A DNA stretch of 64,000 nt from Yuukianura sp. NJ FZ-2021 (lineage: Eukaryota): contig CM102284.1 in the NCBI GenBank assembly GCA_046563655.1, positions 2,976,001 through 3,040,000 on the forward strand, in the 5' to 3' direction. This document shows positions 38,124-64,000 of this stretch, in pieces. The stretch's first letter is position 1. Each line of letters opens with the position of its first letter. A program made the position numbers and the translations under genes. The notes under the pieces were generated by a model. That model searched no databases. It was given only the letters and a program-made list of their open reading frames with translations, and was not told the DNA's origin.

Positions 38124-39282
38124 ATGCCATCTTCCAAAAAAACGCTTTTCCTTTTTGATGTCGACGGTACATTGACAAAGTGTGGGCAGGTAAATTAAAA
38201 AAAAACTATTTTTGTTTCAATGTTTTGTTTAATTCTTTCAAAATTTTAAATCAATTTGAGGCAAATTAAATTAAGTTAAATAAATTAACTATGAAACTTA
38301 CATTTGAAGGAAATAGAACCTGATACAGTGGAATTTCTCAAAAAACTACAAACTCGGGCTGATGTCGCTGTTGTGAGTGGCTCGGATTTGGACAAACTTG
38401 TTGTCCAATTCGGCCGAGGTAGTTTTTTTCTTCACAATTTTTTTAGATTTAATTATACTAAATTTTTGAATATTTCAATTAAAATAAATTTATTTTCTTT
38501 TTCAAACCTTTTCCTTATTAGATATTTTCAGCTTCAACTACATTTTTACCGAAAATGGATGCGTGGCCTACCAGCAAAATCGTCTTATAGGAAAAGTGTG
38601 CATTCTGGACTTTTTAGGGGAAGAGAAGCTGGTGACTTTAATAAATTTCGTGATGGGGTATATGTCCAAACTGCGGTTGCCATTCAAACGTGGAACGTTC
38701 ATTGACCTCAGGACGTCACTAATTAACGTGTCACCGGTCGGACGCTCATGTACTTTAGAAGAAAGATATGCTTTCAAAGCATACGATGAGGTAAATTAAA
38801 TTAATGCTGAAATATTTGTGTCAGCTTCGCACGACTCACGATAGCTGCTGGCTGTGATGTGGTCTCAGCTGTAGCCTACTGGTTCTATTTCGGAGCTACC
38901 GTACCATACTGCGAACGGACACTTTTTGGCCCAATTTCATTAGAAATAAAAATGTTATGATGTGATATATTATTATTTTTTCCAGGCTCATAACATTCGA
39001 AAGTCTTTTGTAAAAGCAATGGAAGAGGAGTTTCAAGACTGGGGACTTCAGTTTTCAATTGGAGGGCTCGTGGGGTTTGACATATTCCCCAAAGGGTGGG
39101 ACAAAAGCTACTGCCTCAAATTTTTGAACGACTACGACACCATTTACGCTTTTGGCGACAAAACGGCACCAGGAGAAAATGACTACGAACTTGTTGTGAC
39201 GGACCAGCGCACAGTGGGGCATCCTGTTTCGGATCCAAATGACACTTTAATACAAGTGGAGCAAATACTACAAAATCTTTGA
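38124..39282 (+). CDS. PMM: Eukaryotic phosphomannomutase-family HAD enzyme (divergent), 4 exons
   Basis: LFDVDGTLT (HAD motif I), VSGSD, FTENG, KRGTFIDLR...NVSPVGRSC...ER, FSIGGLVGFDIFPKGWDK, FGDKT.PGENDYE. Confidence 0.88.
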
Positions 39283-39477: not shown

Positions 39478-42218
39478 TTACACATCATCTACATCTAGGC
39501 TTCGGGATATTGAATATAAAATTTTCAAAAAATTGTCAAGCCCGTCTGCGTAGTTTTTGTCAGTTGACACCGACTCAAAGACATGCGTAAAATCAACCAT
39601 TTTAACGCAAAACCACTCGGGACTTGCGTCAACATTGTGAACTTGTGCAGCATCGTAGATGACTAAAATAGAGCTTCCATAAAATGCAAATTTGGTTTGA
39701 GTTGTGAACCATTTCTGAATTTTCTGAACATGCTCAATGCATATTTCAACCAAATTTTTTCTATTACCAAAAAAGGAGTCAATTGCTCCACAAAGTGTCT
39801 CTGGTGTCAAACTCTTTCCAAACACCTTGTTTTTGTGTACCATTTTTCCATTTTCGAAGTACTGAATTCCAGTGAGACTTAGACCCAGCGTACTTCTCGT
39901 TCCAGCGTATTTGAGTCCAGATTTCCGCCTTTTTTCAATTGAGGTCAAGGGGTCACTCGTTTCTTTTCCAATTTTGATGTCCATGATGCAAGGCATTTGG
40001 AAATTGTGAACAAGATTTTGAAACAAAATGTAAGACTGGGTCCCAATTGTGGTTGTTCCATAATACCTCGGAATGAGTTCGCGTAACTGGATGACCTCAG
40101 GGTCAAAAGTTGAAGAATTCCACATAGCTTCGTAGAACTCAGCTTCACACGGACCTCGTCCGCCATCTTGGAACGGTTTCAATAGGTGCCCAGCACTGTG
40201 GCGTAGCAATGGAGCCGTTTCTTTGTGTCCGCCAACTTGGTTCACAAATGGAACAGGGAACCTTGCCGCCCTTTTTCCTTGCAGTAATTTCAAAACAAAG
40301 TCGGCTATAATTTCTCCGTGATTTTCCACTCCACCGTAACCTAAATAACATCATATAGAAACTCTCCGTGCAAGACAGAGCGTGTGTGTGTCTGTTAACT
40401 ATGTATTGTGTGTATGTACGTGTACAAAAAAATATGAACCGTGCGGACTTGCTTGGAAAAATGTTGAGATCCAAGATGGCCCACCGATTTGCATCCTTTT
40501 CAAATGCAAGGTCAATCCCAAATAGAAAAAGGTCAAGGGTTGATCCAATGCAATTTCCAAGTTGTTGGAGCGTAGACAAATTCAAATTTAAGTTGGCTTC
40601 ACATACGTCTACTTGTCTGCTAATATCTGCTACCCATGAAGGAGGCTTCGACACGTCTTTGCTGTAGAACTGAATTGGACTCTCTTTTAAATAAAAAAAA
40701 ATTTACTTTTAGTTAATTTTTGGCCAACGAAACAGGATTCAGGTATCCCCGGAGATGATCCCTGCCGGGTCACAGGTCAACTTTCTTCTTTTTACCATTC
40801 ATAACCATAGTGCGCAGCTTCTTCTTCTTTAAATTAATTTTAAGTTAACTAGATTCTTACCCTCAACTTTCAATAAATTTTTTATAGAGGGTCGACGAAC
40901 AACAAAGGGTTGTTGACCCACAAAGTAAACTTTGTAGAGTACGGCGTCATGGTTGACAAACGACTGAGCAACTCCAGGAAAAGGACAAACTCCCATCTGA
41001 TCCTCTCTGAATACCACAGTCATCTACATCAAATTTACATAAAATATATAATAATATGTAATATATACTTTGTTAATACACATAATATACATACACATGT
41101 ACAATTATATACGTGTTATATAATTCATTTAGTTAATACCTACTTCATCAAAGAAAAAAAGCACAATCTTACGCGATGCGTTTCCTTGTGTCCGTCAGAT
41201 ACCGTCGGTTTAAATACTGTTAAATAATACAGCTAAGTTTATAAGTTCACATAAAATCAATTATATAAAAAATTAATTTAAAATTTTATAAGTAATTTAA
41301 TTTTCAAATTTTCACATTAGTTTAATTTAATAATAATTTTTAAATTTAATTTGTACTTATTGGAAATGTGAGGCTCTTTTCCATGTCCCGTTGATCGACA
41401 ATCCTATCAAACGGAGGAACGTAGAATCCTTCTGTTGATTAACCCAACTTCATGTAAAATTTGTAAAGTCCCATTGGTTGCAGACTTGTAATTGAAATTT
41501 ATTTAAGTAACTTTTGAAATAATTTAAATATAATAAAGTATAATATCAAACATTAAATTAAGTTATTACCCCCAAGTGATGAAATGGCTTCTTGTAATAA
41601 GTTGTAGGCTTTGAACCTGTTAATTACTGCTCTACAATTTGCAAGTGAATTTATCATGACCACTTCAGGATGTTCCTTTGCGTACGCCTCTATTCGTCTA
41701 AGAATATTCTCAGCCTATGAATTTTTTTTTAAAAGTGGTATGTTAGGCTTTTGTTTTAGGGTTATAAATTATATCAAAATTTTTAAATCAAAAATATATA
41801 AAAGTGAAAATTGTAACTTGATTGTCGCCCATCTCTGCCAGGGCAGCGAGGTCAGTAACTTTGTGTAAAATTCCGTCAAATGGGCCCTGGGCCTCTAGGT
41901 CCCCTTTCAAGTCAATCTACGCATGTCAACAGTTTCAAAATGCAAGTTAATCAACTTGTCGTTTTTGGTTTTCAAATATTTGATAAATTTAATACGCCCG
42001 GGTTTCACCTCGATGAGTTGAATTGACAATCGCCTGAAATTTTATTCCAACTACACTTAAAAACTAATTATAATTTAATTAAGAATTTTGTATTAATTTT
42101 TTTTGGGAAATGGATTTCAAGATATGTACCTCAGTGCTTCTTTGACTCCGCCCAACTCCAAAACCTTGTCTTTTTTCTTATTTACCCAATAGCCTAAACG
42201 GAACGCTTCAATACTCAT
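39478..42218 (-). CDS. Predicted ITPK1-IPMK fusion: N-terminal ATP-grasp inositol-tetrakisphosphate 1-kinase plus C-terminal inositol polyphosphate multikinase
   Basis: ITPK1 exons: MSIEAFRLGYWVNKKK (ATG 42218), QGPFDGILHKVTD, AQSFVNHDAVLYKVY...RPSIKN, LFGID...ILDLNIFP. Final exon 40340-39478: (S)YGGVENHGEIIADFVLKLL, then the IPK motifs QVGGH, PCIMDIKIG, SSIL and MVDFTH in one frame. Confidence 0.82.
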
Positions 42219-42529: not shown

Positions 42530-43678
42530 AATAAGTTGTGTTACACGTATTTTTTGATCGTTTCCAAATTTTGGGGGAATGAAATACCTTTTGAAAGAAA
42601 AATTTTGGTGAAAAAAAATTGACCCTAACGCAACCCGTTGCTGAGTTGTGAGAGGTCAAGGTCGCCATTTTGGAAATGTTCACCCGCGTGTATCTCCGAA
42701 GTTTCTTAACCGATTGAGGTCATCTTGGTGTCAAATGAAAGCCCTTAACTTGCTCCAGATGTTGATTTTTTCAAAAATTTGGTCAAGGGCCCATGGACCC
42801 TTATTTTTTTAAATAAAGGAACTTAGGGGTTTTCAACGTAGAATTTTAATCTTTTCGTTGTAATAACGTTGAAACAGCGAGACTTGACATAGTGGACCCT
42901 TAAGGGCCCCCTTATGACTTTAAGGGCCCCCTGAAATTTTACCCCATTTGCTCCCAAACAACGTTTAAACAAGTTTTTAGTGAAGCAGAAAAAATTTAAT
43001 GCCACTTTTTACTTCAAGGGCCCCCAAGGGACCCATTTATTTCTATCTAACAATGAACTGAAAATTCATGCTTCATATGGGTTCAATGTGATAAATATAA
43101 CTAGAAATTAATTACATTAACTTTTAGTATCTTCTGCTTTCAATTTTCAATTCATTGTTAGACAGAAATAAATGGGTCCCTTGGGGGCCCTTGAAGTAAA
43201 AAGTGGCATTAAATTTTTTCTGCTTCACTAAAAACTTGTTTAAACGTTGTTTGGGAGCAAATGGGGTAAAATTTCAGGGGGCCCTTAAAGTCATAAGGGG
43301 GCCCTTAAGGGTCCACTATGTCAAGTCTCGCTGTTTCAACGTTATTACAACGAAAAGATTAAAATTCTACGTTGAAAACCCCTAAGTTCCTTTATTTAAA
43401 AAAATAAGGGTCCATGGGCCCTTGACCAAATTTTTGAAAAAATCAACATCTGGAGCAAGTTAAGGGCTTTCATTTGACACCAAGATGACCTCAATCGGTT
43501 AAGAAACTTCGGAGATACACGCGGGTGAACATTTCCAAAATGGCGACCTTGACCTCTCACAACTCAGCAACGGGTTGCGTTAGGGTCAAATTTTTTTCAC
43601 CAAAATTTTTCTTTCAAAAGGTATTTCATTCCCCCAAAATTTGGAAACGATCAAAAAATACGTGTAACACAACTTATT
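42530..43678. mobile_element. ~1.15-kb foldback/palindromic element: ~535-bp near-identical inverted arms, ~75-bp spacer
   Basis: 42530-~43066 is the reverse complement of ~43142-43678. The ORF track shows mirrored peptides on opposite strands (identical MALNFFCF...; near-identical MNISKMAT...). Confidence 0.9.
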
Positions 43679-52129: not shown

Positions 52130-53526
52130 GTCGATTTCTGTTGGACCAAATTATTTCTCCTGATAAATGATCAACCGCTGTGTGAGATCTCCTTCAATCT
52201 GATGTCCAAATTTCGATTTTGCTTTCAAAAAAGAACAACAAGCGTTAACCTATCTTTTTACTAAATCGGTTTATACTTTCGTGCGTAGTTTCTGTTGGAG
52301 ATCTGAATCAGATAACTCACTCGTGCTTCCCAGTCCAAAGTCAGTAAATGTGCAATTGGAATCCAACACAAAAGTCACTCTGCAAAATTGAGGATAGAAT
52401 TTTCCCGACGAAGTGATCCCAAAGTTAAATTTCAAAAAAACTTTGCAAATTGCAGACAGGCAGAACACACTAGGCGTAAACTTTGAAATGGGCTCTACTA
52501 GTAGCATATAACAGGGATGGGATGGGATACCAAAAAGTTATTATAATTCCAGTGCAACGGAATAAGACATTCATCGGCATTTTCCTCCCCACTCGACCGT
52601 TCCTCTGGGTGTATACCTATACCCATTTGATAATTCTTCAAACTCTACTTATTTGCTATTTATATTCCGAGATTGGTCAAGGAGAAAATTTTTATGTAGT
52701 AATCTAAAGTTCTGCATGGTTCGGGGATCGGGGTGCCAGGTTAGAAATAATCGTACCGAACATTGTTTCTACCTCCCAAAAGTTAATACAGGTTCGGACT
52801 AGGAAGGGAAATTACAAAGCGCTGTTCGGTTGGCTTTGTAGCGTAATTTGGGAAAGTGCAGTTCCGGTCGGTTTGAGACAATGTTTATAGGCCAAGGGCA
52901 GTTCCAAAACTCGCCAACATATTTAAATATAAGGTCACCGGTATAAAACCTTTGAAAGACAAGTACAAGTACAGCTGCATATTGTTTTCAATTTTTATCT
53001 TACGATTGGCAATGTAGAAATAAATGTTAATCAGGGCTCTCCCGCTCCAGCATTCTTATACTTTCCTTGTAAAACATTTGCCGACCCTTGGTTAAGTGTG
53101 AGGAGGTATGGGAAAGTACGCAGAAAACCATAAGATCACATAACTGGAGTCTTTTCTCATCAGATGTCGTCACATGCAAGAAAGGACCCTTTGATATAAA
53201 TAAACGCTATGTACATGACATGGAGGGATATTAGTAGCAAAATCATTTGACATTTTCGCGAACATTTTACCAGAATAGTCTACCGTTACCGTACCCTCGT
53301 TTGCTAACAAGAAAAATCGGGTCTGACTATTACGCTGACCCTTTCTTTTCAAACGAGAAAAAAAGCGTCAGGGAAATAGTCAGATCCGATTCTTCTCGTT
53401 AGCAATGTCTAGTAGGATCTTATAGGACAATTGATTCCCAGCAGTTATGTCAATTTGGAACGCAAACTGCAGTATAATCACGGTATGAAAAAAGTGACTA
53501 AGAATTGTGATCCTTACCAAACATAA

Positions 53527-53626
53527 NNNNNNNNNNNNNNNNNNNNNNNNNNNNNNNNNNNNNNNNNNNNNNNNNNNNNNNNNNNNNNNNNNNNNNNNNN
53601 NNNNNNNNNNNNNNNNNNNNNNNNNN
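53527..53626. other. Assembly gap (100 N)
   Basis: Run of N. Confidence 1.
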
Positions 53627-57777: not shown

Positions 57778-60700
57778 CTATCTCTTTTTGTCAAGTTCGG
57801 GTTCGGGTTCATGAAATTCGGATGTGGCGCTACCGATGATAGGATTCACCTGTGTATCCTTGCAGGATTCGTTTGCTATTCCTCCACGTTTGTGCCTACC
57901 ACCATTTGCCGACATTTGAACCAATTGTTCCAAAGTGTAGCTTCGAATTTCCGCAGCAGAGAGTTCTAGGTCAAAGTCTGTTTTGAGCATTTGTGTCACC
58001 TCGATGGAAATGATAGAGTCCAATCCAAGTTCCACCAGCTTGTCACTTATGTTCAACTTGGCTGCAGAAGAGTGGCCCAGGATATGCGCAATTCGCTCAA
58101 TCACGTTTACTTCTTCTGGTTTAGCATCAGTTTCAAAACAGCCTTCTAAATTTACAGGTTTCCGACAAAAAGTTACTGGTGGGCCAGGCAGAGTCAGTAG
58201 AATATCCAGGTCTTCCAGCACCGAGCGAATACTTTGAATTCCAGCGCCATGGAACTCTGTGCGCTCAAATTCTTTGTTAAATTGCGAATGCCATGCCCCA
58301 ACTTCCCCAATTGGTCCCCATTGAATTGCTCTTGCCGGAAATCCATCAAGCATACGCCGCTCCACAAGTCGCTCGGCTCCTGAATTAGCAAAAGCGTAAT
58401 TTCCTTGTCCATCAAACCCAACAGCCGCGGACATGCTTGAAAAAATTACAAAGTGGTCCAACTCTGGGCACAACTTTCGGCTAAGGTCATCAAAATTTTG
58501 GGTCATTGTAATTTTGGGGTCAATGACCTTTTGAAAGGCTTCGGCCGTTTGGTTTCTTGTTAAATTTACTTCCAGTTGTAAAGTGAGATTAAAAATTCCA
58601 CCAATGGGAGCCATGTCCATTGCTTCTTTCAAAATTTGATGAGCCTCGTCCAAGTAAACCCCGTTTTTGAAAAGTACGCGGACCTCAACTCCACGCTCTT
58701 TCCAAATTTTCAAATAGCTGCGGGCGTAGGGCGTAAGTCGGTTGCTTCTGGAAGTGACCAGGATGTGATGTGCATTGCGCAGAGTCATCCAGTTGATGAG
58801 TTCAAGCCCAACGCCTCCAAGACCACCTAGAACAATGTAACTCTTCTTTGGCGAGAATTGAACCATTTTTTCTACGTTTGTGGAAGTCTCCGACTGAGTA
58901 CGCATTGCTTCCGAGTGAACATAACATCCGAGTTGCCCCGAGTCGTCAAATACGTTGAACACCAAATCCTGATCCAGAATTTTCTGGAGCATTTCATCTG
59001 GTTTTCCAAAGTCCAGTTGCATCGGTCGCTTTGAAAAAATGGATCGAACGTTCTGACTGTATGGTTCCTTTCGAATGCAAAGAGTGAGGCCAAGGAGACC
59101 GCATTCCCTAGTCTGATCTCCCATCGAAACCAAATAGAGCCGTGGACAAGGACTGCCGTCTTGCAGCAACTTTTCTTGACGCCGCATTGCGACTGCCAAT
59201 GAATCGACCCAAGTCACTGAACTGTTGACGCAAATGACCTCTACATCTTTGGTTTCAAGATTTGTATCCTTGAGAAAATTTAAAAAAAAAATTTCGAATT
59301 TTTTAATTTTAGAATTTAATTTTAGATTTTGATGTTAGTTTGCTTACTTTTCTTATAAGGAAAAGGTCATGGTCAGGCGAAGATTTTTGAGCGATGAAGT
59401 GATAACCATAGGTGCAGGTTTCTAGCAATATTTTTAGTTGTGCTTCACTGCATGTTCCGAGTGGACTTTTGAGTATCAAAAACCCGCCAGTTTTTAGAAT
59501 TGAAAGAAACTGCGGAACAAATTCCTTATCATCCATAACTATCAAATCGAAAGATTTCCCGCATTTCCATTCCTCCAATCCAACGTTTTGGAGATTTTGG
59601 GTTTTGACCATGTTTCGCCTAAAAGTTTCAGCCAAGTCACTGCTTAAACCATCCACGGCCAATGCGTAGTCAACCTGCCAAAATAAAATCATTATTCTAA
59701 AATGTTGGAAAAATTTTCAAAAGTTTAAAAATGTAAACTTACATCAGGTTTTGCAAAATGAGTTCGAATCACGTTGACCATATCGAGTGTTTCTTCTGAA
59801 CGAACTCCTTGACTACATAACTCCAGAATCTTGGGCGGGGTTCTGGTGACTGAAGCAAGATTCTCCATGACAATCGCTACAAATGGGAGCAGGGTCGATG
59901 ATTTGTCGTTTCCCCAAGCCTGTGCCTCTGAATTCTTGAACGGGTAAAACGCATGATGTGAAATTACCGAAGGCAAATCCTGACTCCTTCCGGTACTCAT
60001 TTTGGTCATTTCAAGTCCTTCGATTTCTATACCTCTGGATTTGATAACATTCCCTTCGGAATCGTAATTGACGATGACACTGTGTGGATCACGTCCTATT
60101 GGCGGACTTGACAAATTTTCCAAAAAGTGTATTGGATGAATCGAAATTTTGGAAATGCCGGTGGGAACGCAGAGGTCAGTTGGGTAGTCCTTCGCACTGT
60201 AAATTCTAAAAGTGGTTTGAAACATTGCGTCAATGAAGGTGACCCAATTTGAGTTGAAGTGAAGCAAGAAATGTAACCCAGTGAGGTCAGCTTTTTGAAT
60301 TCCTTTGAAATCTCCAGTGTATTGGTAGCTGAGGAATCGCAGGCGTTTATAGACGTCATCACTCGTCAATGTCGTTTCATAATTTGACAGTGCCTGAGTT
60401 CCAACTGTTTCCATTTCCCGCCACTTCTGTTCTGCCGAATCTTTTACCAACCTATGAATTTTGCCTGTGCAGAGTAGATTATCGTTTTCTGTGACTTCGA
60501 AATTCCCGCTAACTTTCAAAATGTTAACGTTAAATTTCATGACTTCTAAAAAAAATAGAAAGGTTTGAAACAAAATTCATAATATATGTATGAACTGGTT
60601 TGTTCATACATTGAAAAAAAAAAACATTCAATCTACCTGAGTTTTTCAGAATTGTCGCGCGCAAAAATTTGACGTCCTCGAATATCACAGGCGTATTTTC

Positions 60701-62939
60701 CGGATCCGATTGATTGGAAGCTGCAAAATGACGCCACACTAATGACAAATATCCCGCTGCAGGGTAAACAATTTTTCCATCAAGTATGTGACCCGCCAAA
60801 TAGGAATCTTCGTTCCGGGCCAGGCAAACTTCAAATGAGCCGCCATTTCCTCCATAATCAGTACTGTACACTGGAACTTTCCAGGAAGCTGAGTGGTCCC
60901 AGTCTACAAGGTGGCCAAGGAGAGGAGTGTTGCCTGGCAGCGGCATATCAATTGCCTTGCCAATCAAATTGTTCAAGTCAAAGTTAATTCCCGCCACAAA
61001 AATCTTGCCTAAAGCATGCGTTAACGTCATCATGGCGTCTGCATTTCTTGCTTGAAGAGGAATCACTATAGCGTCCTTCGTTCCTTTTTGTATTAAACCG
61101 CGTAATAAACCGCTAGGGCCAATTTCGATTACGACCGCACCCTGAGGAATACGCTGCAGAGCTTCGGTAAAAAGCACTGGAGCGACAAAGTTATTGTGCA
61201 AGTATTCCGGGCCAAACATTTTGGCACTATTTTGTTCCGTGTTTTCAGGAATTGAAGTGCTAATCCAATTGGAAGACCTCGCTCGTGGACGAATCAGTGG
61301 GCGCAAAATTTGAACAAACTTATTTGCCGCTGGAGTGACCCAGTCCGAATGAAAGGCTAAGCCGCAGGAATTGACGTCTTTCACTTCGATGCCCTGAGAC
61401 TCCAAAGTTGCTTTGACTTGCGCAATAAGTTCAGTTGGACCAGAAATTGTTGTGGAATTTGGACCATTGTGGCATGCAACAACTACACCGTCGGGACAAA
61501 CGGTAGCCGTTTCTGTAGCTCCCAGAGGTACAACTGCCATTCCAAAGGAACCCACTTGACTTGCGCAGAGTTCTTCACATGGTTGGCCACGCAGGTAGAT
61601 TGACACGATTGTTTCTTCTAGAGTCATGCACCCGTCGACATAAGCACAGAGTGTTTCTCCCATGGAGTGACCCAGCATTCCGTCAGGCTTAATTCCAAGC
61701 TTGCGCAGAATATCGACGAGACCAATCTGAGTAACTCCGATGGAAGTGAATGTGTTTGTGGGAGATTCGAAAACTGCTGGGTCGTCCGACATGTAAATAT
61801 TTCTGAGATCGTAGTTGTATTTCAGAAGGGCATTACAGCATTTGTCAAAAGCAGCTTCAAAAGCGGGAATTTGAATCAAACTGCGTCCCATTCCAATCCA
61901 CTGACTTCCCATTCCGTTGAGGATGAACCAAACCGGAGGAGGTTTTTCCGTCGTCGAAGCATCTCGAATGTCTCTGACTTCCGTACCGACGATTCCGAAT
62001 CCTCGAAATTTACATTTTATGGAATTTCTATTGATTTCGTTGAGTAGGTACATTTGACTTCTGTCTCTACCTTCGATTACCTTAAAAAACAGAGGTAAAA
62101 ATTTTAACATTAAAAATTAACATTAGAGAAACAAGCATGAAAATTTACTTCATTCAAACTTTTCTCCACGCCATTCCGTGTTCGTCCAGAAAAAGTGACC
62201 AAGTCATGCAACTGAATTTGGCGAAAGTGAGTTTCACTATTTTGCAGATCTTGAAAACAATGACGAAGGAATGGTTTCAAAATGACATGCGTATTGACAC
62301 CACCGAATCCAAAACAATTGATACCAATGTCGCCGATGTTCCATGCGCGATTTTTATCCACAATCTAAAATATTTGAAATAATAATGATTATTAAAAGTG
62401 ATCTCAATTAATTATTTTTGAATATTGTAACTATTAATTTTGTTAAATTGATCACTGAGTTACTTCAACTGTGCCATTCCTGACGTTTTTCATGTTGAAG
62501 TGTGGACGACCGTAGTGGATGTTTCCAGGAATAATGCTATGTTGAATTATTCCAACTATTTTAGCAATAGAGCAGAGTCCAGAAGCTCCCTCGGCATGTC
62601 CCATGTTGCTCTTCACACTCCCAATGAGCAATGGACTCGTACGCTCTCTGTTCAAAACAAAATGGCGACTGATGGCTTTGACCTCTTCAGGGTCACCAGC
62701 AGGCGTTCCTGTTCCGTGAGCTTCCACATAGGTGACCTCTGCCGGGTCAACTCCGGCTTCTAGATACACTTCCTCCATTAACTTCTGTTGCATCGTAGCA
62801 GAGGGGTTGAAAATGCCTTTGTCCTTGTACCCATCCGTGTTGCAACCAATCCCAACAATGGATGCATAAGCTTTCTTGGCATCACACTTTTTCTGCAAGT
62901 AGATTGAAGCTACGGCTTCTGCTCGAACGTATCCAAGAC
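57778..62939 (-). CDS. Type I fatty-acid-synthase-like/PKS enzyme, 3' part (KS C-half-MAT-DH-pseudoMT-KR-ACP); 5' exons presumably beyond the right edge
   Basis: KS: GYVRAEA, EAHGTGT, GSVKSNMGHAEGASG, NCFGFGG. MAT: GMGSQW, GHSMG, AFHS. DH: LAGHILDGKIVYP. KR: GGLGGVG, FSS, GQGNYAFANS. ACP: LGLDSI. Stop at 57778. Confidence 0.92.
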
Positions 62940-64000
62940 CTGGAGAAAAAATCTTGACATTAGCGAAACGGGTTTGTTCCATTTATGGTGAAAATCCGAA
63001 CGAACTCGAACTAACAGTGACCATGACCTTGAATAGCTGCATGCAAATCATTTATAAAAATAAATCCAAAACAGTTCTTTTTGAATTCTTTTATTAGTTG
63101 AAGTTGTCGACCTGTCTAAAAATTTCGCTCTCCAGATCTATGTTATGTTGGTGCGACAATACTACGTTGAGCGCCACCGAAAAGAGTACACCCCTATTTT
63201 GATTTCCATAAAGACGAGTTGAAAATTATGTAAACATGAGGGGAAAGTTAGCTCAAACTTTGAAACTTCAGCTAACATATTTTTTGAAGGAATTTTTGCA
63301 AATTGCGTTATTTCGATCGCTTTTCCTCCACAGTTGCGAAATTAAACAAAGTACTGATTTTTGGGTGTACTCTTTTCACTGGCGCTCACGGTGCAATGAA
63401 CTCGTTGCTGGCAAAGAGAATGTACAAAACATTACGAGTGAACTTTGTATTACGCAATTACTTCGTAAAAACTTGCACTTTAGAGAAAGGAACAACTTAC
63501 CTAGGTTTATACCAAATACCAACAGAGATAAAGTCACCTAACCTAATAAGTGCTGAGCAAAGAATGCTTCATGATAGTACTAGACGGTTGACCGATAAAA
63601 ATCGTGTGAAAGTTTGCTCAAAGCTTAAAATATTTTTCAAATTTTTTCCTTTCTACGAAGTCTTACAACTGTGTAATTATTACGCTTATATGATGTAATA
63701 TGCGATGTTACAGTCATTGGCAACAATTTGGTCAGATGTAAGAGCCTTAGCGACAATTAGCAGCATTAGAATTGAAAATTCATGTGTTAGGTAGGGTTAT
63801 GTAAGGCAAGGTTAACCTAACCAAAAATTTATAATTGTTTTTGGTCCTCCAGGCTATTTATCAACACTTGTGATACCCAGAATGTGTGTTGAAATTATAT
63901 GCAAATTGTTTTGGTCGTTATTAAAAGCTAGGCTGTACACAGGGGGTGGCAAAAATGCCTTAGCGACCAAAACCGATTCTTGAGTTGTTTACAATTTCAC

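Follow-up and report, generated by a model that had tools for sequence, protein, structure and literature searches.

A single nine-exon gene in Yuukianura sp. NJ FZ-2021 probably encodes two inositol-phosphate kinases, ITPK1 and IPMK, in one polypeptide, an architecture that is new although both families are known. The gene occupies positions 42218..39478 on the minus strand of the window (the whole stretch of DNA analysed here, 64,000 nucleotides), and these limits are exactly the ATG and the stop codon of a hand-built model with 577 codons and 1734 nt in frame. The features of the model are given in Table 1. The predicted protein consists of a complete ITPK1 (residues 1 to approximately 312), a linker of about eight residues, and a complete IPMK-type IPK kinase (residues approximately 321–577). 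We consider it likely that this is a genuine animal gene fusion, giving one ITPK1-IPMK polypeptide of about 577 residues, with intron 8 most likely starting at a GC donor. An in-frame stop is found 11 codons upstream of the ATG in exon 1. The next gene, encoding a phosphomannomutase, is located 195 nt past the stop of the fused gene.

Table 1. Positions in the window of the features of the predicted ITPK1-IPMK gene.
Feature	Position	Strand	Description
Exon 1	42130..42218	-	N-terminus with conserved R-x-G-Y-W..KK motif; ATG at 42218-42216
Exon 2	42009..42033	-	25 nt; required for gap-free alignment to P0168 and P0166
Exon 3	41818..41916	-	Probable pre-ATP-grasp domain; conserved motif H-K-x-T-D
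Exon 4	41570..41714	-	From nine-exon model, three-way alignment and tblastn with P0168
Exon 5	41357..41431	-	From nine-exon model and three-way alignment
Exon 6	41173..41216	-	From nine-exon model and three-way alignment
Exon 7	40861..41023	-	ITPK1 ATP-grasp core; conserved NHDAVLYKV; R-P-S; PF05770 47.7 bits
Exon 8	40453..40683	-	ATP-grasp domain through ...FGID...D-L-N-I-F-P; codon phase 1 at end
Intron 8 (favoured)	40341..40452	-	112 nt; donor GCAAGT 40452-40447; acceptor tgttatttag ending 40341
Alternative GT donor CAC/GTACAT	40414..40419	-	Phase 1; would lengthen exon 8 by 33 nt; fusion kept
Exon 9, first part	40276..40340	-	Predicted ITPK1 C-terminal tail: junction Ser, Y-G-G-V-E-N, last helix ending L-L-Q-G
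Linker	40252..40275	-	About 8 residues, K22-V29 of exon 9; from end of ITPK1 homology to first invariant IPMK column, P30
IPMK-type IPK catalytic domain	39508..40251	-	Exon-9 residues 30-277; QVGGH, P-x-x-x-D-x-K-x-G, SSIL, V-D-F-T-H
Stop codon of fused reading frame	39478..39480	-	From nine-exon model
Candidate polyadenylation signal AATAAA	39446..39451	-	27 nt beyond stop

Over residues 7–318, the ITPK1 half and stand-alone ITPK1 proteins are collinear (4e-57 with P0168 and 1e-51 with P0166), and neither alignment has a gap at any exon junction. The alignment of exon 1 to P0168 begins at residue 7. Identity is 53% between exon 3 and P0168 (tblastn) and 54% between exon 7 and P0166, and the alignment of exon 8 to human ITPK1 extends to ...DINAFP. 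Profile searches had been suggested as a check in the initial annotation of this DNA, and with the exons scanned singly they gave the expected families: PF05770 (Ins134_P3_kin) was found above its curated cutoff of 23 bits in exon 7 (47.7 bits) and exon 8 (25.7 bits), and PF03770 in exon 9. Exon 3 by itself scored 19.4 bits with PF17927 (Ins134_P3_kin_N) against a cutoff of 21, while the spliced model aligns, starting at residue 7, with the part of P0168 and P0166 that PF17927 covers. The ITPK1 motifs G-Y-W..KK, H-K-x-T-D, NH-x-AVLYKV, R-P-S and F/I-G-I-D, which we take to be involved in binding of ATP, metal or substrate, are matched, by identical residues or conservative substitutions, in the three-way alignment and in human ITPK1. 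The motif D-x-N-x-F-P-[GS]-Y-x-G-V is matched too, and is complete only once exon 8 has been spliced to exon 9.

The alignment runs through the exon 8/9 junction, where ...N-I-F-P / S-Y-G-G-V-E-N is matched by ...N-A-F-P-S-Y-D-G-V-P-N in P0168, and in human ITPK1 the spacing is the same, with ...N-A-F-P-G-Y-E-G-V...L-Q-G. Because the alignment crosses the junction, the start of exon 9 is predicted to supply the last 22 or so residues of ITPK1, comprising the Y-G-G-V motif and the final helix. The match to exon 8 covers positions 106–183 of the 201 in the PF05770 profile, whereas in P0166 and P0168 the profile reaches position 200, about 17 residues beyond F-P; ITPK1 would therefore be incomplete without the start of exon 9. 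The earlier proposal that splicing restores the conserved C-terminal motif and the last helix is thus in agreement with the two collinear proteins and with the layout of human ITPK1.

The 24-residue tail was also compared directly with ITPK1 C-termini, and its similarity to them is above chance. The observed score was reached by 35 of 20000 shuffled sequences for P0166 and by 330 of 20000 for P0168, and the spliced tail scored 26 and 27, compared to 20 and 15 for the unspliced read-through. A helix is predicted at exon-9 residues 7–19. Searches of Pfam and the PDB with the tail alone (31 and 41 residues) gave no match, the tail being too short.

Exon 9 is, on sequence and on its predicted structure, the carrier of a complete IPMK-type IPK domain. 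The match to PF03770 has 128.5 bits (E 3.9e-37; cutoff 22.2 bits) and covers profile positions 1–189 of 190 over translation residues 103–274. A phmmer search of the PDB found human IPMK at 147 bits (5w2g, 5.8e-42), ahead of Arabidopsis IPMK (72), Entamoeba IP6K (50), and IP3K (30 or lower). An alignment of 11 IPMK sequences has 23 invariant columns, all of which the exon-9 protein keeps, and the invariant or near-invariant residues retained include P116, D120, K122, G124, S222, S223, L225, D249, F250, H252, Q34, G37, H38 and K54. The IPK catalytic motifs P-x-x-x-D-x-K-x-G, S-S-[LI]-L and [IV]-D-F-x-H are present, as are the N-lobe Q-V-x-G-H and its Lys.

AlphaFold2 was used to predict the structure of the exon-9 protein. 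The model has a pLDDT of 83 and a pTM of 0.82, with pLDDT values of 77–96 from about residue 40. In a Foldseek search the top nine chains were all human IPMK (best 5w2g; E 1.4e-23 to 7.4e-20), with target-normalised TM scores of 0.88–0.90; the best human IPMK matches have TM scores of 0.89–0.90 and rmsd values of 1.7–1.9 Å. The structural ranking repeats the order found with phmmer, in that IPMK is closest, ahead of IP6K and IP3-3K.

The stop-to-stop ORF 39478..40350 has 290 codons and runs without a stop into the full IPK domain; as had been proposed, a short linker leads from the ITPK1 tail into this domain. It had also been claimed that the IPMK part has no in-frame ATG before QVGGH. In fact none of the three frames has an ATG between the acceptor (40340) and the QVGGH codons. 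In the IPK frame an ATG first occurs at 40125 (codon 72), past both the QVGGH motif and the invariant Lys54, and the two ATGs in intron 8 (40354 and 40351) are outside the IPK frame. As the stretch of exon 9 up to QVGGH offers no ATG at all, the IPK domain would be translatable only as a continuation of ITPK1. Trans-splicing of a spliced leader ending in AUG onto the 40341 acceptor was considered separately and was ruled out, as exon 9 would then leave the IPK frame.

The details of the junction reported in the initial annotation were recovered in the sequence. Exon 8 ends with ...NIFP and one further base (A at 40453), followed by GCAAGT at 40452-40447, and exon 9 opens with GT TAC GGT GGA GTG at 40340, after the acceptor ...tgttatttag at 40341. 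Splicing creates a Ser codon, after which YGGVENH... is read in the same frame as the 290-codon ORF. We infer the exon 8/9 junction from homology and splice-site scores only. Donor and acceptor shapes for the scoring were taken from the ORF-to-ORF gaps of a neighbouring giant gene, which is a heuristic and ambiguous set. GC donors are rare. The flanks of this one (CAA/GCAAGT) score 6.5 bits, equal to the best among the 21 training GT donors, and the acceptor at 40341 resembles the other acceptors of the window. Among 21 ORF-to-ORF gaps of the giant gene, surveyed heuristically and with an ambiguous outcome, none was a convincing second GC-AG intron. Intron 8 is unusual for the gene in its GC content, which is 0.39 compared to 0.12–0.34 in the other seven introns.

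Eight phase-1 GT or GC sites lie in the interval from 40670 to 40371. The highest score, 6.5, is that of the GC donor; the GT at 40419 follows with 3.8, and none of the remaining six exceeds −4.2, which makes the GC site at 40452 most likely the donor. The in-frame GT donor at 40419 was missed in the initial annotation. Its use would insert 11 residues ahead of Y-G-G-V and preserve the IPK frame, and since both plausible donors are in frame, the fusion results from either. The description of the fusion as hidden behind a GC-AG intron therefore holds in so far as the GC donor is favoured, but the fusion does not depend on it.

That the fusion is real and is made via the GT donor at 40419, or with both donors used alternatively, is unlikely, but it is the strongest of the alternatives. 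Exon 8 would then be 33 nt longer and the intron 79 nt, which is inside the range observed in the window, and CAC/GTACAT is a canonical phase-1 GT donor whose hexamer GTACAT is shared by 2 of the 21 training donors. The 11 extra residues would however fall between ...F-P and Y-G-G-V, within the most conserved ITPK1 motif, which is ungapped in P0168, P0166 and human ITPK1. The site also has no G at −1 or at +5, and its flanks score lower than those of the GC donor.

An improbable alternative is that there are two proteins, with IPMK having its own promoter and an unrecognised ATG-bearing 5′ exon spliced in phase 1 to 40341, and with ITPK1 mRNAs ending in some other way, for example by retention of intron 8. 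Such an arrangement would fit the failure of the homologue searches to find a fused homologue, and the absence of a canonical donor at the junction predicted by homology. Against this, ITPK1 would be left without the Y-x-G-V motif and the final helix, which are present in all the ITPK1s compared, and read-through of intron 8 would append 102 codons without homology. The separate IPMK would still start with the ITPK1 tail encoded by exon 9, and the nearness of the phosphomannomutase gene leaves no room downstream for a further terminal exon of ITPK1. It is barely credible that the locus is an artefact, with two genes wrongly joined by a chimeric assembly or an indel error, or that it is decaying, with a pseudogene of IPMK carried into the 3′ end of ITPK1. 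The genome is a draft that has a gap of 100 N at another place in the window, and the linker has an indel-prone A5 run, but a frame error in the linker creates no start codon, ATG being absent there in all frames, 287 codons are free of stops with all 23 invariant IPMK columns intact, and GC3 is similar in the two halves (0.41 and 0.40). The favoured reading is one gene with the GC donor.

We searched for other examples of the fusion. PF05770 was found in none of 20 long IPK relatives scanned with Pfam (19 of at least 432 aa and one of 409 aa); these were drawn from the best 150 of 2578 HMMER matches in 1.84 billion representatives, and those listed all have 40% identity or less. Similarity to ITPK1 was found in none of 165 fetched IPK proteins (best E-value 0.14). 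A word-index search with exon 9 gave 1623 candidates, none of them a longer protein matching at E ≤ 1e-5, and a search for proteins of near length gave 15 IPK-domain proteins with identities of 35% or less, 14 of them with IPK only and one (P0012) having also a C1 domain. The homologue search with exon 7 returned only three ITPK1 matches, none fused. In a protein atlas, all 30 matches to exon 9 were IPK-only clusters and exon 8 matched short ATP-grasp, RimK and Ins134_P3_kin clusters, with no two-domain cluster in either case. A metagenome scan gave one locus, L001, which is a GC-rich stand-alone IPK with its own Met. An Rfam scan of the window gave no match. A natural ITPK1-IPMK fusion was likewise not found in the literature searched, a scope outside which lie the supplementary tables of the kinase surveys PMC8024741 and PMC13384419. 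The initial annotation knew of no described example, and none has come to light in this literature and limited homologue set, which is a narrower scope than a full domain-architecture database. Since none of these searches turned up a fused homologue, conservation of the fusion lacks support.

Both halves keep the catalytic motifs of their families, and the fused protein therefore probably has both kinase activities. For ITPK1 the family activity is on Ins(1,3,4)P3, Ins(3,4,5,6)P4 or Ins3P, and for IPMK it is that of a 3-/5-/6-kinase on InsP3 and InsP4, in animals also of a PI3-kinase. The function proposed in the initial annotation, a single-polypeptide InsP5 synthase with possible substrate channelling, is hypothetical. 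The ITPK1 half would phosphorylate lower inositol phosphates, such as Ins(1,3,4)P3 or species derived from Ins3P, and the IPMK half would carry the product to Ins(1,3,4,5,6)P5. The most likely origin of the fusion is that both the stop codon of ITPK1 and the start codon of IPMK were lost, either through a deletion between tandem genes or because an IPMK copy without introns inserted into the final exon of ITPK1. The last residues of ITPK1 and the whole IPMK domain share one uninterrupted exon, and the IPMK domain has no introns while the ITPK1 half has eight. A bolder reading, which we regard as doubtful, is that the animal has no free IPMK, its sole IPMK being welded by the eight-residue linker to the C-terminal helix of ITPK1. 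The protein would be an obligate InsP5 synthase with direct handover between active sites, and would amount to Rosetta-stone proof of a soluble, lipid-independent route from ITPK1 to IPMK; its origin would be an intronless (retro-copied) IPMK that landed in the last ITPK1 exon.

InsP5 and InsP6 synthesis is fed by two promiscuous kinases, ITPK1 and IPMK, and when two proteins occur in nature as a covalent fusion, this is classic 'Rosetta stone' evidence that they cooperate. The fused protein would offer a ready-made construct for asking whether proximity changes the InsP isomers made and whether intermediates are channelled. IPMK has other roles, nuclear and as a lipid kinase, and the fusion raises the question of how these are served when it is tethered to ITPK1. 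For annotation, a gene finder that accepts only GT donors would split or truncate the fused gene. Cooperation of the two enzymes in the PLC-independent (cytosolic) route is, in the account given by PMC6900528, still argued from knock-outs and yeast reconstitution: ITPK1 is proposed to carry out the initial steps and IPMK to phosphorylate a later substrate to Ins(1,3,4,5,6)P5, and yeast devoid of both PLC and IPMK did not regain InsP6 with ITPK1. Arabidopsis ITPK1 is described as reaching Ins(1,3,4,5,6)P5 alone (PMC7618535), and on that description coupling to IPMK is therefore not universally needed.

The ITPK1 half resembles stand-alone ITPK1 (human 2q7d, 2qb5 and 2odt; P0168 from the tardigrade Ramazzottius varieornatus) in its PF05770 domain and probable PF17927 domain, with about 310 collinear residues, 33% identity to P0168, and common motifs through F-P-[GS]-Y-x-G-V and the last helix. 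The difference lies in what follows the helix. In P0166 and P0168 there is a non-conserved tail and the chain ends 30–45 residues later, whereas in the fused protein the IPMK domain begins after about eight. The second half shares the IPK fold and motifs with IPMK (human catalytic core 5w2g/5w2h/6m88; yeast Ipk2 2iew; Arabidopsis 4frf) but, unlike stand-alone IPMK relatives, has no initiator Met of its own. In 10 aligned stand-alone relatives the chain begins from a few to a few tens of residues before Pro30, with a Met in nine. The metagenome locus L001 begins M-L-P-F-K-N-Q-V-G-G-H, and in the fused protein the ITPK1 helix takes that position.

Other IPK-domain fusions were present among the fetched homologues, indicating that the IPK domain recombines with other modules. 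P0141, P0151 and P0152 have EF-hands, with or without a C1 domain, in addition to IPK, and P0066 and P0095 have two or three matched IPK stretches; all five lack an ITPK1/ATP-grasp domain. Plasmodium falciparum PF3D7_1008000, as outlined in PMC12694804, combines an HDAC2 domain with a C-terminal IPMK domain. It is similarly a natural multidomain protein with IPMK at the C-terminus and a partner linked to inositol-phosphate biology, but the partner is a histone deacetylase and not an inositol-phosphate kinase, and the organism is an apicomplexan. PPIP5K/Vip1/VIH, as outlined in PMC8024741 and PMC13384419, consists of an ATP-grasp inositol pyrophosphate kinase and a histidine-phosphatase domain, and so resembles the fused protein in that one chain holds an ATP-grasp inositol-phosphate kinase and another catalytic domain of the same pathway. 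There the second domain is an opposing phosphatase, whereas in the gene described here it is a kinase of unrelated fold, which would act downstream.

A nine-exon model of the probable ITPK1-IPMK fusion gene was made by eye from three-frame translation of the minus strand. It is in frame over 1734 nt (577 codons), with introns of 92-177 nt, seven of which have GT donors, the exception being intron 8. All eight introns are in the ITPK1 half, compared to none in the IPMK half. Within the 64-kb window, ITPK1 and IPK are each represented by a single locus.

Coordinates of the probable fusion gene and neighboring features (window positions)
Feature	Positions	Strand	Basis or remark
Exon 1	42218-42130	-	hand-built model
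Exon 2	42033-42009	-	hand-built model
Exon 3	41916-41818	-	hand-built model
Exon 4	41714-41570	-	hand-built model
Exon 5	41431-41357	-	hand-built model
Exon 6	41216-41173	-	hand-built model
Exon 7	41023-40861	-	hand-built model
Exon 8	40683-40453	-	hand-built model
Intron 8	40452-40341	-	first bases GCAAGT
Exon 9	40340-39478	-	hand-built model
Phosphomannomutase gene	38295-39282	+	PF03332, 9e-36 for last exon
Giant gene, calponin-homology domain and spectrin-like repeats	2-30805	-	domain matches
Animal-type fatty-acid synthase exons (acyltransferase, dehydratase, pseudo-KR, KR, carrier)	57778-62982	-	

Pfam scans of single exons found both families at the locus: PF05770 (Ins134_P3_kin) in exon 7 (47.7 bits) and exon 8 (25.7 bits), and PF03770 (IPK) in exon 9. 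Exon 3 alone matched PF17927 (Ins134_P3_kin_N) slightly below the cutoff, with 19.4 bits. A homologue search with exon 7 gave three hits to ITPK1, of which P0166 (359 aa) and P0168 (378 aa, attributed in its source to Ramazzottius varieornatus) are full length. The spliced model matches P0168 with 4e-57 (residues 7-318) and P0166 with 1e-51, and in a three-way MAFFT alignment all exon junctions lie inside aligned blocks, with no junction gaps.

The initial annotation had placed the end of exon 8 at N-I-F-P plus one base, and this is where the PF05770 profile is reached to position 183 of 201 and where the alignment with human ITPK1 ends, exactly at D-I-N-A-F-P. In stand-alone ITPK1s the match reaches profile position 200, about 17 residues beyond F-P; human and tardigrade ITPK1 continue there with G/S-Y-E/D-G-V and then a helix, which in the human protein ends V-L-Q-G. 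Joining 40453 to 40340 restores this motif and last helix, as had been proposed: it gives a Ser codon (the Ser is common to P0168), Y-G-G-V-E-N, and a helix ending L-L-Q-G, with the spacing of human ITPK1. This 24-residue tail outscores nearly all shuffles of itself, 35 of 20000 reaching its score against P0166 and 330 of 20000 against P0168; the read-through tail made without splicing scores lower. The tail alone, which is too short a query, had no matches in Pfam or PDB. AlphaFold2 predicts a helix at residues 7-19 of exon 9, with low confidence over residues 1-24, as would be expected for a fragment lacking its ITPK1 context.

Donors were scored on their flanks (-3 to -1 and +3 to +6), using a matrix from 21 GT donors, 7 from the fused gene and 14 selected in the giant gene, which had been surveyed heuristically. 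Eight phase-1 GT or GC sites from 40670 to 40371 were compared. The GC site at 40452 scored 6.5, level with the best training donor and top among all phases, followed by the GT site at 40419 (CAC before GTACAT) with 3.8, and the other six at -4.2 or below. Because GT 40419 would insert 11 residues within the conserved F-P-x-Y, where the compared ITPK1s are gap-free, we favor the GC donor. The GC-AG intron originally proposed has the highest donor score; the fused frame is identical with GT 40419. The acceptor (tgttatttag before G) is similar to others in the window. Summed over both donors, an ITPK1-IPMK fusion is, from the DNA, very likely.

Again as annotated, exon 9 runs on without a stop past the ITPK1 tail into a complete IPK domain (PF03770, 128.5 bits). 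This domain starts at Pro30 of the exon-9 translation. It matches human IPMK with 5.8e-42 and 147 bits, Arabidopsis IPMK with 72 bits, Entamoeba IP6K with 50, and IP3-kinases with at most 30. Aligned with IPMK relatives (11 sequences in all), the domain retains each of the 23 invariant columns, including Q-V-x-G-H, Lys54, P-x-x-x-D-x-K-x-G, S-S-x-L and D-F-x-H. The AlphaFold2 model of exon 9 has a pLDDT of 83, and its nine top Foldseek matches are all human IPMK (target-normalised TM 0.88-0.90). Among the best 150 of 2578 representatives, the closest IPMK relatives are at most 40% identical. Both halves look catalytically intact.

As first noted, the IPMK part has no in-frame ATG ahead of QVGGH; from the acceptor up to the codons of this motif, ATG is absent in every frame. 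The earliest in-frame ATG of exon 9 is codon 72, after eight of the invariant N-lobe columns, and the two ATGs of intron 8 are both out of frame. The IPK domain can therefore be translated only as an extension of a preceding exon that ends in codon phase 1. In ten aligned stand-alone IPMK relatives the distance from the chain start to Pro30 ranges from a few residues to a few tens, and nine of them have Met first. The metagenomic IPK locus L001 begins M-L-P-F-K-N-Q-V-G-G-H, with its own Met just ahead of QVGGH, whereas the fused protein has the ITPK1 helix and about eight linker residues there.

The host is an animal-type genome with introns. The phosphomannomutase and fused genes are convergent, tail-to-tail, with just 195 nt from stop to stop. 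The giant gene is nesprin/dystonin-like; its largest exons are about 3.7 kb, and close to the window start it has acidic repeats in which E-F-E-K-E is abundant. A run of 100 N (a scaffold gap) lies at about 53,480-53,580. About 310 nt upstream of the fused gene's ATG is a 537-nt inverted repeat (arms 42530-43066 and 43142-43678, 99% complementary, 75-nt spacer). Possible readings are a foldback or MITE-like element and an assembly palindrome; the repeat might affect the promoter.

Intron 8 has a G+C content of 39%, compared to 12-34% in the other seven, and includes a CA-rich stretch. Its composition and the intronless IPMK half may be traces of the fusion's origin. The latter is compatible with a retro-copied IPMK, although this is a weak hint, since exons of several kilobases occur in other genes of the window.

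No description of a natural ITPK1-IPMK fusion was found in the literature searched, in line with the initial annotation, and a search for longer proteins matching exon 9 found none. PF05770 was absent from all 20 IPK relatives scanned with Pfam (all 19 of at least 432 aa and one of 409 aa, within the best 150 of 2578). Three ITPK1 queries against 165 fetched IPK proteins (phmmer) gave a lowest E of 0.14, and the protein atlas returned single-family clusters only. A more distant fused form would escape these searches, because they reached nearest relatives only.

Some scanned relatives have other arrangements. Three IPK proteins (P0141, P0151, P0152) have N-terminal EF-hands, two of them also a C-terminal C1 domain. 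No discussion of this putative calcium/diacylglycerol-sensing IPK architecture was found in the literature searched. P0066 (573 aa) has three matched IPK stretches and P0095 (603 aa) two; these may represent IPK domains in tandem or, alternatively, fused gene models.

Desfougeres et al. (PMC6900528) propose that Ins3P is initially phosphorylated by ITPK1, and that Ins(1,3,4,5,6)P5 is formed by IPMK from a substrate further along the route; they report that in yeast without PLC and IPMK, ITPK1 did not restore InsP6. In Arabidopsis, InsP5 is reportedly reached by ITPK1 alone (PMC7618535). We infer the function of the fused protein along these lines. Fusion would hold the two activities at 1:1 and in proximity, and some transfer of intermediates between the halves is conceivable, if speculative, because the linker is very short.

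The fusion reading is well supported by the DNA of one genome, and is relevant to inositol-phosphate specialists. The domain combination is apparently new, both component families being known; a table in a 2026 review sets the families in separate columns (PMC13384419). Known multidomain proteins to compare with it are PPIP5K/Vip1, a relative that combines a kinase with a phosphatase, and, as reported, the HDAC2-IPMK protein of Plasmodium (PMC12694804).
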